Below are positions 2,921 to 27,339 of a stretch of 64,000 nucleotides of DNA, piece after piece. This DNA is from an uncultured Acidobacteriota bacterium (GTDB lineage Bacteria > Acidobacteriota > Thermoanaerobaculia > UBA5066 > Gp7-AA6). Every line of letters starts with the position of its first letter. The first letter of the stretch is position 1. The position numbers and the translations under genes are program-made. A model generated the notes under the pieces. The model was not told the origin of the DNA. It made no database searches and was given only the letters and a program-made list of their open reading frames with translations. The stretch spans positions 640,001 through 704,000 of the forward strand of contig CAVXTP010000022.1 of NCBI GenBank assembly GCA_963764715.1, read 5' to 3'.

Positions 2921-3933
2921 GCCGCGGCCCTCCGCAGCGATTTGAACCGGTCCCGGGCGGCCCCCGAGTCGATCGCCGCGCGCGCCCGCTCATACCCCTC
3001 TCCGACGCCCGGCGCCCGGCCTTCCACGACGAGCGCCACGGCCGCGTTGACGAGCACCGCCTCGCGCCGCGCGCCGGGCTCGCCCTCGAGGAGCCGCGAG
3101 AGCATTCCGGCATTTTCGGCCGCATTACCCCCGGCCAGGTCGTCGAGCCCCAGGGGCGCCTGCCGGAGCGCGTCTCCCGCGAGCCGCCACGGCCGCGTCG
3201 AGCCGCCCTCGACCTCGACGCCGGCCGCCCCGACCCCTGGCGTCAGCTCGTCGAGGCCATTGTCCGAGTGGAAGACGATCGCGCGTTCGCTGCCGAGCGT
3301 CGCGAGCGCGTCGGCGAGGAGCCGGGTCAGCTCCGGCCGGCCGACGCCGATGAGCTGCCTCGTGGCGCCGGCCGGATTGGCGAGCGGACCGAGCGAGTTG
3401 AAGATCGTCCGGATGCCGAGCTCGCGGCGCACCGTGCCGAGCTCTTTCATCGCCGGGTGGAACGCCGGGGCGAAGAGGAACACGAGGCCGGTCTCGTCGA
3501 GGATCCGTCCGGCGCGCTCGGGTTCGAGGTCGACGGCGATGCCGGCCGCCGCGAGCACGTCGGCCGACCCGACCCGCGAAGAGATCGAGCGGTTGCCGTG
3601 CTTGGCGACGATCGCTCCGGCTCCCGACGCGACGATCGCCGCGGCCGTCGAGAGGTTGAAGAGGTCGCGCCCCAGCCCCCCCGGACCGCACGTGTCGAGG
3701 ATCGGCGCGCAGCGCGTCGGGACGCGGCGCATCCGGGAACGCAGGGCGGACACGGCGCCGGCGATCTCCTCGGCGGTTTCTCCGCGGGTTGCGATTCCGA
3801 GGAGCAGGGCGCCCTTCTGTGCCTCCGTGGCGCGGCCGTCCATCAGGTCACCGAACGCGGATTCCGCGAGGGCCCGGGAGAGCGTCTTCCGGGCGGCTAC
3901 GGTCTTCAGGGCGGCGGCGACCTCGGGCGTCAC
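2917..3933 (-). CDS. trpD: Anthranilate phosphoribosyltransferase
   Basis: DTCGPGG, FNLST, KHGNRSISSRVGSAD, FAPAFHPAM, RTIFNSLGPLANP, GLDE; GTG start. Confidence 0.96.
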   Translation of the reverse strand: MTPEVAAALKTVAARKTLSRALAESAFGDLMDGRATEAQKGALLLGIATRGETAEEIAGAVSALRSRMRRVPTRCAPILDTCGPGGLGRDLFNLSTAAAIVASGAGAIVAKHGNRSISSRVGSADVLAAAGIAVDLEPERAGRILDETGLVFLFAPAFHPAMKELGTVRRELGIRTIFNSLGPLANPAGATRQLIGVGRPELTRLLADALATLGSERAIVFHSDNGLDELTPGVGAAGVEVEGGSTRPWRLAGDALRQAPLGLDDLAGGNAAENAGMLSRLLEGEPGARREAVLVNAAVALVVEGRAPGVGEGYERARAAIDSGAARDRFKSLRRAAA

Positions 3934-4103
3934 GACGCGAGCCTCACGGTCCGTCGTAGGGGCGGCGTTACCGCCGTGCTGCGCACGGCGTTCCCTGACG
4001 CCGGGAGATTGCCTCTGGTGGCCGGGTGCGGCCGCCCGAGGGAGGGGACAAGCCCCTCCCCTACAACCGAGCCAGATTGCGGCGTCACGACGCGAGCCTC
4101 ACG
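3926..4103. repeat. REP doublet (GTAG family) between 23-bp direct repeats at the trpG/trpD junction
   Basis: GGCGTCACGACGCGAGCCTCACG at 3926-3948 and 4081-4103. Inside: GTAGGGGCGGC...GCGGCCGCCC (3956-4037) and GGGAGGGGACAAGCCCCTCCCCTAC (4040-4064). Confidence 0.85.
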
Positions 4104-4657
4104 AAATTCTCGAGGATCCGCTCCCCCTCGGGCGTCAGGACCGACTCCGGGTGAAACTGGACGCCGAAGACCGGGAGCGACCGGTGCGCGACCGCCATGA
4201 CGAGGCCGTCCTCGCTTCGGCCGGTGACGACGAGATCCGCCGGCAGCCCGTCCTCCCTGACCACGAGCGAATGGTATCGCCCGGCCTCGAACGGGCGCGG
4301 CAGCCCGTCGAAGAGTCCCGATCCATCGTGATCGACCCGCGAGCTCTTTCCATGCCGCGGCTCGGGCGCCCGCTCGACGACTCCGCCGTGGTGCGCGGCG
4401 ATCGCCTGGTGGCCGAGGCAGACCCCGAGCAGCGGCACCCGTTCGCGCTCGGCGGCGGCGATCATCGCGATCGACCGGCCGGCGTTCTCGGGCCGGCCCG
4501 GGCCGGGCGAGATCACGACCGCGCGCGGCTTCGCCGCGAGGACCTCGTCCGGATCGAAGCGGTCGTTGCGGGCGACGACGACGTCCGCGTCGAGCTTCCC
4601 CAGCGCCTGCACCAGGTTGTAGGTGAAGGAGTCGTAGTTGTCGACGACGAAGATCAT
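4085..4657 (-). CDS. trpG: Anthranilate synthase glutamine amidotransferase subunit
   Basis: True start MIFVVDNYDSFTYNL at 4657; ISPGPG, GVCLGHQ, GRYHSL, GVQFHPES. Confidence 0.95.
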   Translation of the reverse strand: MIFVVDNYDSFTYNLVQALGKLDADVVVARNDRFDPDEVLAAKPRAVVISPGPGRPENAGRSIAMIAAAERERVPLLGVCLGHQAIAAHHGGVVERAPEPRHGKSSRVDHDGSGLFDGLPRPFEAGRYHSLVVREDGLPADLVVTGRSEDGLVMAVAHRSLPVFGVQFHPESVLTPEGERILENFVRLAS

Positions 4658-23282: not shown

Positions 23283-23921
23283 CTACTTCAGCGAAATCGA
23301 GATCGTCGTCCCGTCCTTCTCGAGCACGACGCGGCCTTCCTCGATCTTCGAGACCGTGAATCCCTCGACGTAGGCGCCGGTCCCCACGATCCGGTCGTTC
23401 AGGAGCGCCCGCGGCTCTTCTTCCGACCAGGCGATTCCGCCGAGCTCGATCCGGGCGCCGTCCGGCAACTGGACGGAACCGACGTAGTTGCGCCCGTGGG
23501 CGGGAGGCGGCGGCGGCGCCGCTTCCGTCGCCTCGGGCGTGGTCTCCGCGAACGAGACGCCTTCGGGCAGCGCGCTTCGTGTCGGCCGGGGCGCGCGGGG
23601 GACGGCGGCCGGCGGAGCCAGCGGCGTCGTCACGACCGTCTCCGAGAGCGTCGGCTCGGGCGCGGGCATCGTCGGCGCCGGCGCCGCGGCCGGCCGCGAC
23701 GCGGGAGCGGCGGCATTCCAGACTGCCCGGACTCCCACCGCGGCCACGACCAGAGCCGCCGCGATCGAGACCGACCAGAGGAGCACGCGCAGGATGCGCC
23801 GACGGCGCGCGAGGCCCGCGTCCGGCAGCGGGGCGGGCGTCCACGGCCGCTTCTCGGGCGACGCGCCCTCCTTGCGGGCCGCTTCCTGGGCGCGCTTGAG
23901 CGCCTCGTCGATGAGGCTCAC
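23283..23921 (-). CDS. GspB/ExeB-like bitopic membrane protein
   Basis: MSLIDEALKRAQ N-terminus, one TM, Pro/Ala linker, C-terminal LGGIAWS...ALLN...G..V.G..V.KI...V.L domain; coupled to ExeA-like gene. Confidence 0.72.
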   Translation of the reverse strand: MSLIDEALKRAQEAARKEGASPEKRPWTPAPLPDAGLARRRRILRVLLWSVSIAAALVVAAVGVRAVWNAAAPASRPAAAPAPTMPAPEPTLSETVVTTPLAPPAAVPRAPRPTRSALPEGVSFAETTPEATEAAPPPPPAHGRNYVGSVQLPDGARIELGGIAWSEEEPRALLNDRIVGTGAYVEGFTVSKIEEGRVVLEKDGTTISISLK

Positions 23922-24730
23922 GCGACCTCTCCCTCGAGCTCGCGGATCGCCTGGCCGACGGCCCGGCTCTTGAGCTCGTAGGTTCCGTTGACGTAGCCGT
24001 AGAGGAGGGCCTTGTCGCAGACCGCGTTGATCAGGCGCGGGACCCCTCCGGCATAGCGGTGGATCTTCCGGATCGCCCACGGACTGAACGTCGGCCGCCC
24101 GTCGCCGCCCGCCACACGGATGCGGTGGTCGATGTACCGGGCGGTTTCGTCGCGATCGAGCGGCGCGAGGTGGTACCGGACGGTGATGCGCTGCCGGAGC
24201 TGCCGCAGCCCGCGCTCGTTCAGCTTCTCGCGGAGCTCCGGCTGCCCGATCAGGACGATCTGGAGGAGCTTGCGCTGGTCGGTCTCCAGGTTCGAGAGGA
24301 GCCGGATCTGCTCGAGGAGCTCCGGGTCGAGGTCCTGCGCCTCGTCGATCAGGAGCACGACGTCGTTGCCGGCCCCGGCCTGCTCCAGCAGGAAGCGGTT
24401 GAGAAGCTCGAGGTACGCCGTCCGATCGACCTTCCGCGGCTCGAGGCCGAGCTCCGTCAGCACCATCCGCATCAGTTGCGTGGCCGTGACCATGGGGTTG
24501 AGGATGAGCGCCGTCTTGTAGGAGGCCCCGAGCTCCGCGAGGATCGCCCGGCAGACCGTGGTCTTTCCGGCGCCGACCTCGCCCGTGATCTGGATGAAGC
24601 CCTTGCGCTCCCGGATGCCGAAGAGTACGTGGTTGAAGGCCTCGCGGTGCTTGTCGGAGAAAAAGAGGAAGCGGGGATCGGGGGTGATGTTGAACGGCGC
24701 CTCCCGGAAGCCGTAGAAGTCGTTGTACAC
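23918..24730 (-). CDS. ExeA/GspA-family AAA ATPase (ATPase domain only)
   Basis: MY..FYG....PF..TPDP.F, GEVGAGKTT, LLIDEAQ, LIGQPEL, GVPRLIN. Confidence 0.9.
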   Translation of the reverse strand: MYNDFYGFREAPFNITPDPRFLFFSDKHREAFNHVLFGIRERKGFIQITGEVGAGKTTVCRAILAELGASYKTALILNPMVTATQLMRMVLTELGLEPRKVDRTAYLELLNRFLLEQAGAGNDVVLLIDEAQDLDPELLEQIRLLSNLETDQRKLLQIVLIGQPELREKLNERGLRQLRQRITVRYHLAPLDRDETARYIDHRIRVAGGDGRPTFSPWAIRKIHRYAGGVPRLINAVCDKALLYGYVNGTYELKSRAVGQAIRELEGEVA

Positions 24731-24779
24731 CGCCCCCGAGCTTAGTCCAATCCCCGCCCCCGACGCTCCGCGCCCGCCG

Positions 24780-25580
24780 TCAGGACGCCTTCGCGAGCGG
24801 CCGGCAGTCCCCGCACGGGTGATAGCCGGCGGCGAGGGCCTCCTCGTCCGAGTGGAAGGCGACCTGGTTGGACTCGAGCAGCGTCTGGATCCCGCCGCAC
24901 GTCGGGTAGCAGTAATGCATCCCCTTCGAGTTGCCGAGGTACCGCACGTGCGAGGCCGCGAGCTTCTCGAGCGTCTCGGGCTGGGCCCCCTCGAGCGCCA
25001 GGAGTGTGCGCTTGTTGCGCGCCCCGCCCAGGGAGTACTTGCCGATGTGCCCGTCGCTTCGCACCACGCGGTGGCACGGGATCAGGAGCGGCACCGGGTT
25101 CTTCGCCAGCGCCGTGCCGGCGGCCCGCACCGCGCCCGGGTGCCCGATCTCCTTGGCGATCCAGCTGTACGGCCGCACCTCCCCCGTCGGGATCTCGAGG
25201 GCCTTCAGCAGCACCGCCCGCTCGAACTCGGACAGCCCGCGCAGGTCGTACCGCAGCTCCCGCCGGCGCTCCCCCTTGAGCCGCCCGACGAGCGCCCGCA
25301 CGGCCGCCGGCGGAACCGCCTTCTCCCGGTAGGCCGTCCGGCCGAACCGACGGCGGAACGCCCGCTCGAAGTCGGCTTCCGACTTCGCCCGCGTGACCAT
25401 CGAGATCCCCGCCTTGCTGTGCGCCACGAACACCGGCCCCACCGGCGACTCCAGCCGCCAGTAGTGGTCCGCGAGCCCGACGCGGCGCAGGACGGCCGGC
25501 AGCAACGTGGCCGGCGCCTTTTCCACGGAGAAGCTCCGCAGGGCCTGCGTGATCTCGAGTCCCTTGTGCATTCTCTTCAC
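24780..25580 (-). CDS. Methylated-DNA--protein-cysteine methyltransferase with C-terminal Ada-like Zn-binding domain
   Basis: IPTGEVRPY, AVRAAGTALAKNPVPLLIPCHRVV; C-terminal YCYPTC...F.S.EEALAAGYHPCGDCRP; GTG overlaps sigma stop. Confidence 0.9.
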   Translation of the reverse strand: MKRMHKGLEITQALRSFSVEKAPATLLPAVLRRVGLADHYWRLESPVGPVFVAHSKAGISMVTRAKSEADFERAFRRRFGRTAYREKAVPPAAVRALVGRLKGERRRELRYDLRGLSEFERAVLLKALEIPTGEVRPYSWIAKEIGHPGAVRAAGTALAKNPVPLLIPCHRVVRSDGHIGKYSLGGARNKRTLLALEGAQPETLEKLAASHVRYLGNSKGMHYCYPTCGGIQTLLESNQVAFHSDEEALAAGYHPCGDCRPLAKAS

Positions 25581-26281
25581 GACCTCACCCCCTCCCGGCG
25601 CGAGATCGACAGGGCCTCGCGCAGGGCGTTGATTCCGCGATGGACGTTCGACTTGGTCGTTCCCAGGGGCTGCCGCAGGACCGTGGCGACCTCCTCGAGC
25701 CGGAGGCCCTCCACGTAGCGAAGCTGCAGCGGCGCCCGGTAACGCTCCGGCAGCGCGGCCATCAGGTCCGCGATGTCGCGCCGCTCCCGCGCGCGCTCGT
25801 ACGCGCGGTCGGGCCCGTCGGCGTGGTCCGCCGGCTCCCACCTCTGGTCGCTGTCGGCCGAGACGGGCTGGTCGAGCGAGACCGTGCGGAGCTTCTTGCC
25901 GCGGAACCGGTTCCGCGCCACGTTGAGCGTGATCCGGTAGAGCCAGGGACGCAGGGCGAGCGCCCGGATGCGTTCGGCCGGGTACGTCGCGAGCGCCCGG
26001 TACGCCCGGACGAAGGCGTCCTGCGCGACCTCCTCCGCGTCCTCGCGCCGCCCCGTCAGCCGGAGGGCATACGAGAACAGCCGGTCCTGGTAGACCCGGA
26101 CCAGCTCCTCGAACGCGCCGTCGAGGTCCTCCGCGACCGATTCCCGGAGTCTTTCTTCCTGCGACATCGGCGACCGACCGCCTCTCTGCTCGTCCGGCTG
26201 ACCCATCACCAGCCGGAAATCCGATCTCCCCGCGACCGGCCAGGGGACGCGCCCCGTGTCCGGCGCGCATTCGCTCGTCAT
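25577..26281 (-). CDS. ECF-family RNA polymerase sigma factor
   Basis: Region 2 (AFEELV..YQ..L...A.RL...EDAEEVAQDAF, WLYRI..N) and region 4 (LPERYR..L.LRY.EG....EVA..L..PLGT.KS..HR); start ATG 26281 (GGAGG upstream) or 26167. Confidence 0.92.
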   Translation of the reverse strand: MTSECAPDTGRVPWPVAGRSDFRLVMGQPDEQRGGRSPMSQEERLRESVAEDLDGAFEELVRVYQDRLFSYALRLTGRREDAEEVAQDAFVRAYRALATYPAERIRALALRPWLYRITLNVARNRFRGKKLRTVSLDQPVSADSDQRWEPADHADGPDRAYERARERRDIADLMAALPERYRAPLQLRYVEGLRLEEVATVLRQPLGTTKSNVHRGINALREALSISRREGVRS

Positions 26282-26343
26282 GGTGCCCTCCGCTCGCCTC
26301 CAGAACACGCGCGGAGGGCCCGGGGTTGCAGCCTCCCCGGCTC

Positions 26344-27339
26344 CTAGACGGGCGCCGCCTGACGCTTGCGCTTGCGTTCGATCCCCGCGGCGATCCGGGC
26401 CGCGTGGTGGCGGCTGTTCTCGATGAAGATGCGGCCGGTCTCCCGGCCGCCGAGGATCGCCCCGGCCAGGTACAGGTCGGGCACGTTCGACTCGAGCGTC
26501 TCCGGGTCGTGGGCCGGCACCCGCGCGGGGCCCTCGAGCCGGATGCCGCAGCGCTCGAAGAGGGCGAAGTCCGGCTCATAGCCGATCAGCGGAAAGACGG
26601 CCTCGGCCGGGATCGACCGCTCCCCTCCGGGACCGGCGACGCGGACCGCGTCCGCCTCGATCGCGAGGACCCGGGTCTCGAAGAGCGCCCGGATCGCCCC
26701 CGCGGCGATCCGGTTCTCGAGGTCCGGCCTGATCCAGTACTTGATCCGGTCCGAGAGGGCCGCCGCCCGCACGACGAGCGTCACGCGCGCCCCGTGCCGG
26801 TACAGGTCGAGGGCGGCCTCGGCCGCCGAGTTCTTTCCGCCGACCACGACGACGTCCCGTCCGTGGAACGGGTATCCCGAGACGTACCGGGAATGGACCT
26901 GCGGACGCTCCTCGCCCGGCACGGACAGCTTCCGCGGGTTGTGGAAGAACCCCGTCGCGAGGATCGCGGCCGGGGCCTCGACCCGCTCCCGGCCCCCCCG
27001 GCTCAGGACGGTCGCGGCGACTCCGCCCCCGGGGAGCGGCTCGACCTTCTCGACCGGGGTCTCCGCTCGGACGGCGACGCCGAACTGCTCGGCCACGCTG
27101 CGGTAGTAGCCGAGCGTCTCGAGGCGCGTCGGGTGCGCTTCGGGCGAGCCGAACGGGACCCCCGCGATGTCGAGGAGATCGCGCGTCGAGAACCAGCGCA
27201 TCTCCTCGGGAAACCCGGAGATCGAGTCGAGGAGCCCGCCGCGGTCGAAGCACACGGCGGGGATGCCGCGCCGGAGGAGCTCGACGGCGCAGGCGATCCC
27301 GGTCGGGCCGGCGCCGACGATGGCGACGGGCGTTTCCAC
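26344..27339 (-). CDS. YpdA-family FAD-dependent disulfide oxidoreductase
   Basis: IVGAGPTG, FP..M.WFST, PTR.E.L.YY, ATGFF, VVGGKNSA, IGYEPD, IFIENSR.H. Confidence 0.85.
   Translation of the reverse strand: METPVAIVGAGPTGIACAVELLRRGIPAVCFDRGGLLDSISGFPEEMRWFSTRDLLDIAGVPFGSPEAHPTRLETLGYYRSVAEQFGVAVRAETPVEKVEPLPGGGVAATVLSRGGRERVEAPAAILATGFFHNPRKLSVPGEERPQVHSRYVSGYPFHGRDVVVVGGKNSAAEAALDLYRHGARVTLVVRAAALSDRIKYWIRPDLENRIAAGAIRALFETRVLAIEADAVRVAGPGGERSIPAEAVFPLIGYEPDFALFERCGIRLEGPARVPAHDPETLESNVPDLYLAGAILGGRETGRIFIENSRHHAARIAAGIERKRKRQAAPV

Follow-up and report, generated by a model that had tools for sequence, protein, structure and literature searches.

Escherichia coli Ada joins two suicide acceptor modules, a Zn(Cys)4 methylphosphotriester domain and a PCHR-containing transferase, and its self-alkylation is the signal by which its own synthesis is controlled (PMC4437013, PMC10779285). 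The protein is described as taking up methyl groups at C38 and C321, with DNA or the alkylating agents themselves as donors, and as inhibitory when the unmethylated form is in excess (PMC4437013). In the split Ada systems of Bacillus subtilis and Aspergillus, the methylphosphotriester and O6-alkylguanine functions reside on separate proteins (PMC10779285). We analyzed a stretch of 64,000 nucleotides (the window; contig CAVXTP010000022.1, positions 640,001 to 704,000) from an uncultured Acidobacteriota bacterium of the genus Gp7-AA6, in which the gene for an extracytoplasmic function (ECF) sigma factor is followed by that for a fusion of an O6-alkylguanine transferase (MGMT) with an Ada-type zinc domain. 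This fusion, MGMT-Ada(Zn), is referred to below as the partner. Both modules of Ada are represented in it, and we propose that here, too, self-alkylation is the signal and the protein governs its own synthesis. Unlike in E. coli Ada, the order of the domains is reversed, there is no AraC-type helix-turn-helix (HTH), and we propose that a dedicated ECF sigma carries the output, in place of a sensor that itself binds DNA. The self-methylation of Ada at two cysteines and the inhibition by its unmethylated excess are precedents for the switch that we propose.

The class I zinc-binding anti-sigma factors (ZAS; the zf-HC2 family), of the RsrA/ChrR type, are likewise encoded right after their ECF sigma, with overlapping codons, and the HxxxCxxC motif of these proteins occurs in relatives of the partner. 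The reading that we favor, with moderate confidence and from comparison of sequences, is that the partner is an alkylation-consumed anti-sigma factor of the ECF sigma, controlling a regulon of repair and detoxification. The two-gene module is real and conserved. Binding of the sigma by the short N-terminus of the partner, and its release on alkyl transfer, are what we infer.

In the window, the TGA stop of the sigma gene (25579-25577) lies on the GTG start of the partner gene (25580-25578) as a GTGA overlap on the minus strand, just where the original prediction, made from the letters of the window, had seen it. A full-length ortholog of the partner is present in 22 of 24 other genomes of the genus, at 72-96% identity; G008 (85% complete) and G022 (81% complete) yielded none. 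Immediately upstream of it, with overlapping stop and start codons, a sigma ortholog occurs in all 21 genus loci that have upstream DNA. The sources of near-identical proteins name metagenome-assembled genomes (MAGs) of Thermoanaerobaculia (Acidobacteriota). Farther afield, a search of 1.84 billion representatives with the partner gave 206 clusters at E <= 1e-30, many of them full-length, and an alignment of 24 diverse members, scanned against species genomes, picked up 80 loci. These are from Chloroflexota, Dormibacterota, Actinomycetota, Eremiobacterota, Acidobacteriota, Rubrobacteraceae and one gammaproteobacterial MAG. Record titles place cultured Actinomycetota (Nonomuraea, Streptosporangium, Nocardiopsis and Actinokineospora) among the carriers, which makes our reading directly testable.

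The match runs through the Ada-Zn domain in 49 of these loci, 42 of which have at least 700 nt upstream. A same-strand ECF gene lies directly upstream in 37 of the 42, all in other phyla, mostly with an ATGA overlap. Three of the five exceptions (L086, L090 and L110) are classical Ada proteins with the Zn domain first; the fourth (L076) has a different ECF directly upstream, and the fifth (L070) is without the sigma and without the N-terminal segment. Counted by the MGMT-Ada(Zn) architecture, with upstream DNA present, an ECF gene is directly upstream in 38 of 39 loci of other phyla; among plain-MGMT matches an upstream ECF gene was seen in 11 of 31. Conservation of the pairing, on which the original prediction had staked itself, is borne out within the genus and beyond it. 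In the reverse direction, with the sigma as query against 301 Acidobacteriota genomes, the partner was found downstream in G006, G075 and G157. Of these, G075 is an unpublished genome, and it is our ground for stating that the pair occurs in a second genus of the family; a further unpublished genome, G030, underlies none of our statements. Conservation inside one genus could be simple inheritance, and one might regard the adjacency as a matter of chance or of descent, the two genes being functionally uncoupled. This is very improbable, as the overlapping pair recurs in the phyla named above, from Chloroflexota to Acidobacteriota, and in the gammaproteobacterial MAG, the linked sigmas form one clade, and the same promoter also precedes further alkyl-repair genes.

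The window sigma contains the Pfam regions Sigma70_r2 (E 7e-15) and Sigma70_r4_2 (E 2e-11), and no other sigma region, and it scores 88.6 bits with the sigma70-ECF model TIGR02937 (cut-off 42.9). With regions 2 and 4 and the superfamily model passed, it belongs to the ECF (group 4) sigma-70 factors. A tree of 98 sequences gathers 55 of the 57 linked sigmas, together with two further linked ones, into one group, with a value of 93 in the SH-like approximate likelihood ratio test (SH-aLRT). The window sigma is inside this group, which leaves out every ECF paralogue of its own genome; two linked sigmas, L094 and L083, are placed elsewhere. Residues 1 to ~38 of the window sigma are a genus-specific, translated N-terminal extension (26167-26281), and the core begins near MSQEERL (26167). 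Across the 21 genus loci the indels of this extension are multiples of three. It contains a conserved FRLV(L/M)GQPEQ, whose DNA forms an inverted repeat (26193-26217); the conservation of the repeat could reflect a constraint on the protein or on the nucleic acid. Sigmas of other phyla showed no such extension, and their promoter ends ~10 nt ahead of the start codon.

The loose ECF-like promoter of the original prediction, TGCAAC-N15-CGTGTT (26330-26304), is present ahead of the sigma gene. Read as GCAACC-N14-CGTGTT (26329-26304), it is invariant in 21 of 21 genus loci, with divergence of the spacer and the flanks. In other phyla, the 200 nt ahead of the sigma gene contain a match to at least 10 of the 12 bases at 24 of 45 loci, versus 3.4% of control windows, and the end of the motif is usually ~10 nt ahead of the sigma start codon. 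In those phyla, the 4 kb around the operon yielded no second motif. An exact-motif scan of five genomes of those phyla gave seven sites, two of which are the sigma promoters; one further site precedes an EamA-type transporter and one an SDR gene, and no shared regulon could be named from them. The genome of the window holds three copies of the exact 12-base motif, the two others being inside long open reading frames (ORFs). Across 31 genus genomes, the pattern GCAACY-N14-CGTGTY gave 127 matches, versus 20 for a reversed control pattern. The recurrent match GCAACCGAACCGATGTCCTTCGTGTT and the matches at C17:85310 and C15:102273 were rejected as promoters for their location inside coding sequence, and the match at C21:303131 for having no gene start nearby.

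The recurrent intergenic matches in the genus lie a few bases upstream of start codons. The motif lies ahead of DUF1203 in 18 of 18 orthologous loci, between which the spacers diverge, and ahead of DinB_2 in six of these 18 loci as well as in L191 and L218. At one place in the genome of the window (G000:C26:62475-64066; L114 2035-3570) a DinB_2 and a DUF1203 gene adjoin, each with its own copy of the motif. A 64-aa stand-alone Ada-Zn gene has the motif upstream in all three genomes that hold one, and a plain Ogt paralogue has it at six sites in five genomes. The Ogt paralogue of the window's own genome is preceded by GCAACC-N14-CGGGTT (11/12), ending 12 nt ahead of the ATG. An epoxide hydrolase (three genomes) and a small ABM protein (two to three genomes) complete the list. 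The motif before a second Ogt and before the stand-alone Ada-Zn gene gives the sigma an alkylation-repair regulon, and the member genes together indicate one centered on the repair of alkyl lesions and the detoxification of electrophiles. With Ogt, a mini-Ada, DinB_2, DUF1203 and epoxide hydrolase, it differs from the regulon of E. coli Ada. It resembles the split Ada systems in that Ada-Zn (64 aa) and Ogt are each present as a stand-alone protein; in the split systems the Zn-domain protein bears an HTH and is the regulator, whereas in the genus neither stand-alone protein has an HTH. For DUF1203, the literature searched held one unrelated paper. If the regulon is as proposed, it would provide a first functional context for this family, and would also place the uncharacterized small ABM protein.

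A MOSC gene (11/12 in the genome of the window) was rejected as a member of the regulon: only 3 of 19 orthologous loci retain the motif, and the element that is conserved across the loci is a TetR-type palindrome. This failure indicates that the conservation test discriminates. The MOSC gene (G000:C21:62882-63424, L115; L247-L264) and a divergent TetR gene share the palindrome GTAACC...GGTTA, which looks like a TetR operator. Separately, a further ECF-like ORF is found ~1.5 kb upstream of the Ogt paralogue (G000:C15:39176-40030, L117), with an amidohydrolase-like gene in between.

The domain content of the partner is as had been read from the sequence. The DNA_binding_1 match of the O6-alkylguanine transferase includes PCHR (residues 168-171), and the protein scores 88.4 bits with TIGR00589 (cut-off 46.4). 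The four-cysteine Ada-type domain at the C-terminus (Ada_Zn_binding, PF02805) has E 1.7e-6 and 28.3 bits against a cut-off of 23, the cysteines of its CYPTC...PCGDC being C224, C228, C256 and C259. The order reversed with respect to E. coli Ada was upheld in the Pfam scan, in which no HTH family, HTH_18 and HTH_AraC included, matched the partner. With 90.2 bits against a cut-off of 345, it is not an equivalog of Ada. All 24 diverse members share P168, C169, H170, R171, Y138, R152, N161 and E197, as well as the four zinc cysteines. We take Y138, R152, N161 and E197 to be the conserved tyrosine, the arginine finger, the asparagine hinge and the glutamate, with roles known from the human and E. 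coli enzymes. Judging by these residues, both acceptor sites are intact. An AlphaFold2 model built with 57 homologues (mean predicted local distance difference test score, pLDDT, of 89.7; predicted template-modeling score, pTM, of 0.83) has two N-terminal helices preceding the N-domain of MGMT. The top solved relative by both profile and fold is E. coli Ada-C (1sfe; profile E 1.1e-35, Foldseek 4.5e-12), and the C-terminal 55 residues match the N-Ada structures 1adn and 1u8b (profile E about 1e-10).

The case for an anti-sigma function centers on the N-terminus of the partner, the segment ITQALRSFSVEKAPATLLPAVLRRV (residues 10-34), for which the original prediction had claimed a likeness to the tail of anti-sigma domains. 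In 7 of the 24 diverse members, a Pfam zf-HC2 domain stands N-terminal to the same body of MGMT and Ada-Zn, and homologues of 288-324 aa carry a genuine HxxxCxxC zinc anti-sigma domain ahead of the MGMT body, with or without Ada-Zn. In alignments, the N-terminal segment of the window protein registers with the part of the zinc anti-sigma domain that lies past the CxxC helix. Residues 20-38 (KAPATLLPAVLRRVGLAD) are 83% identical within the genus, which is level with the enzyme domains and indicates that this short segment is under purifying selection. It is plausible, on this alignment, that the window protein retains only the last helices of an anti-sigma domain, over ~38 residues. Unlike a ZAS protein, it would keep only what lies past the CxxC, and the proposed sensor is alkyl transfer to an enzyme cysteine, not oxidation of the ZAS zinc site. 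The N-terminal 38 residues had no family match in Pfam. The longest possible N-terminal extension of MGMTs without a sigma proved too noisy as a proxy for the segment in high-GC ORFs.

A number of observations weigh against an anti-sigma role. The HxxxCxxC motif and the first helices of the class I anti-sigma domain are absent from the partner, and when the excised short N-termini were aligned with those of ZAS relatives by hhalign, the expected register was obtained with a probability of 4.7% (P 0.0085), by which a common origin of the short segment and the anti-sigma domain is plausible and not proven. The earlier claim of an anti-sigma-like segment stands as to its helical nature and the missing motif; its likeness to an anti-sigma domain is not significant when taken alone. 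A further regulatory element could lie in the genus-specific extension of the sigma. In seven other Acidobacteriota genomes the weaker sigma matches (103-119 bits) were other ECFs with no MGMT neighbor, which indicates that the link is valid for the clade and not for loose relatives. Lastly, the basic residues beside the zinc ligands of an Ada domain serve in binding the DNA backbone, and CxPTCRxARR and RPCKxCRP of other phyla are CYPTCGGIQT and HPCGDCRP in the genus. The loss of these residues indicates that the genus Ada-Zn domain may not work on DNA, and one may speculate from the residues that it senses methylating agents directly instead of DNA lesions.

On such grounds the partner might be regarded as a co-transcribed repair enzyme and nothing else, with the sigma controlled by its transcription, by its N-terminal extension or by an unlinked factor. 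The lack of a recognizable anti-sigma motif in the window protein, the weak hhalign result and the conserved extra extension on the genus sigma are all in keeping with this view, as is the entry of ECF122, an ECF group with an MGMT neighbor, among the ECFs without a cognate anti-sigma in the review PMC8999054. We consider it rather unlikely, since it would leave unexplained the near-obligate 4-nt overlap across phyla, the ZAS domain on the same enzyme in relatives and the purifying selection on a non-enzymatic N-terminal segment. Furthermore, the sole sigma-less member (L070) also lacks this segment.

If the partner is instead an anti-sigma factor consumed by alkylation, the switch would, in its most economical form, operate as follows. 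Unalkylated MGMT-Ada(Zn), made 1:1 and coupled with the sigma, would keep the sigma inactive through the helical remnant of a class I anti-sigma domain. The pair would be cytoplasmic, with the anti-sigma itself as the suicide alkyl acceptor. Cys169 would irreversibly accept an alkyl group from O6-alkylguanine, and/or the zinc-bound Cys224 would do so from methylphosphotriesters or from methylating agents directly. The alkylated partner would be inactivated, destabilized or remodeled, and the sigma freed. The free sigma would then transcribe from GCAACC-N14-CGTGTT promoters. One is that of its own operon, whose expression would replace the consumed partner and reset the switch. Its other targets would be the second Ogt, the 64-aa Ada-Zn protein, the thiol-transferase-like DinB_2 proteins and DUF1203, with the epoxide hydrolase and the ABM protein in some relatives.

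The same two acceptor cysteines, both conserved, would also serve a partner that acts as a co-activator in the manner of Ada, in which the alkylated protein, bound to the ECF sigma or to RNA polymerase, would boost transcription, with no sequestration. Methylated Ada of E. coli is described as activating through contact with the sigma and alpha subunits of RNA polymerase (PMC4437013). In the partner, there is neither an HTH nor another domain for promoter recognition, the genus Ada-Zn domain is without the basic residues expected for DNA contact, and the relatives bear zf-HC2, a domain known to sequester sigmas. Co-activation is therefore improbable in our estimate.

A 2022 review, summarizing the ECF classification of Casas-Pastor et al. 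(2021), gives ECF122 as an ECF group with a conserved neighboring 6-O-methylguanine DNA methyltransferase, an "unknown mechanism" and an example from Cellulomonas (PMC8999054). ECF122 is not mentioned in the main text of the ECF classification paper PMC7826278. The window sigma shares with ECF122 the MGMT in its neighborhood, and this feature also occurs with a second, unrelated sigma clade. Of 151 genomes of the order to which an Arthrobacter locus belongs, 47 contain the second clade, and we presume Cellulomonas also to be placed in this order. A search of 301 genomes of the order, in which 10 candidates per genome were scored and misses are therefore possible, gave no window-type sigma at E <= 1e-48; the positive controls for its profile scored 204-214 bits. 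The absence of the window clade and the presence of the second clade in this order suggest that the catalogued ECF122 may be the second clade. By this comparison, the window sigma clade may be a group other than ECF122. The sigmas of the second clade (~170 aa) overlap a plain MGMT with an N-terminal extension of ~45 aa (loci L095, L101, L104, L105, L109, L113 and L089, about 3300-4550 in each), and their hosts are Actinomycetota: Arthrobacter, Agrococcus, Mycobacterium syngnathidarum, Frankiaceae and Iamia.

No experimentally studied alkyltransferase of the ECF/anti-sigma kind was found in the literature searched. These comparisons suggest that the module is partly catalogued already, and that what is new is a variant wiring of ECF/anti-sigma pairs and of the Ada response. 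To our knowledge, an adaptive alkylation response in which the repair protein is its own sensor is known only in the Ada/AraC form. The chances appear to us evenly poised that the module constitutes a second, Ada-independent adaptive response, in at least six phyla, in which a consumed suicide anti-sigma gauges the damage, one sigma being freed per alkylated molecule, with a sigma clade separate from ECF122. If the proposal is correct, irreversible self-alkylation would be wired to transcription through the sequestration of a dedicated sigma, and a mechanism would be at hand for ECF sigmas listed as of "unknown mechanism". It would also offer a testable promoter motif and regulon in soil phyla whose regulation is almost unexplored.

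The features of the locus are collected in the table.

Table. Features of the sigma/MGMT-Ada(Zn) locus, in window coordinates.
Feature	Position	Strand	Description
ECF sigma gene	25577..26281	minus	234 aa + stop; Sigma70_r2 + r4_2, TIGR02937
Candidate anti-sigma gene (helical N-terminus + MGMT + Ada-type Zn)	24780..25580	minus	266 aa + stop
Partner N-terminal segment, residues 1-38	25467..25580	minus	predicted helices 2-15 and 26-33; core KAPATLLPAVLRRVGLAD
MGMT C-terminal domain (DNA_binding_1), residues 118-198	24987..25229	minus	Pfam E 1.6e-27
PCHR acceptor site (Cys169)	25068-25079	minus	inside DNA_binding_1
Ada-type Zn(Cys)4 domain, residues 214-261	24798..24941	minus	Pfam Ada_Zn_binding; C224, C228, C256, C259
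-35 element GCAACC	26324..26329	minus	invariant in 21/21 aligned genus loci
-10 element CGTGTT, N14 from -35	26304..26309	minus	invariant in 21/21 aligned genus loci
Shine-Dalgarno GGAGGG	26286..26291	minus	GGA..GGG and ATG kept in 21-locus upstream alignment
Inverted repeat TCCGGCT(G)-N9-(C)AGCCGGA	26193..26217	minus	kept in 21-locus alignment; codes FRLVMGQPD

The likeliest start of the sigma gene is the ATG at 26281 (MTSECAP...), 4-5 nt past the GGAGGG. The GTG at 26308, which gives the longest ORF, was rejected in its favor on the basis of the 21-locus upstream alignment. Scans of 23800-26500 for sigma-70 promoters and intrinsic terminators found no site. Among sequencing runs, the fraction of the words present was at most 0.35 in every run searched. 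Two RNA libraries (X18 and X20) contained short contigs 90-97% alike to parts of both genes, in which no transcript start or induction was evident.

Downstream of the pair are genes at 23918-24730 and 23283-24080, both on the minus strand. The one that begins 49 nt past the partner stop encodes an AAA_22 ATPase, and no terminator-like site was found between it and the partner gene. The ATPase resembles the XrtA/PEP-CTERM system-associated ATPase (309 bits, below the cut-off of 324.5) and is seemingly unrelated to the module. Just upstream of the sigma gene, at 26344-27339 (minus), lies a gene for a putative bacillithiol disulfide reductase of the YpdA family (TIGR04018; 346.5 bits, cut-off 339.9). 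It is kept upstream in the genus loci, and fits the thiol-transferase-like DinB_2 members of the regulon.

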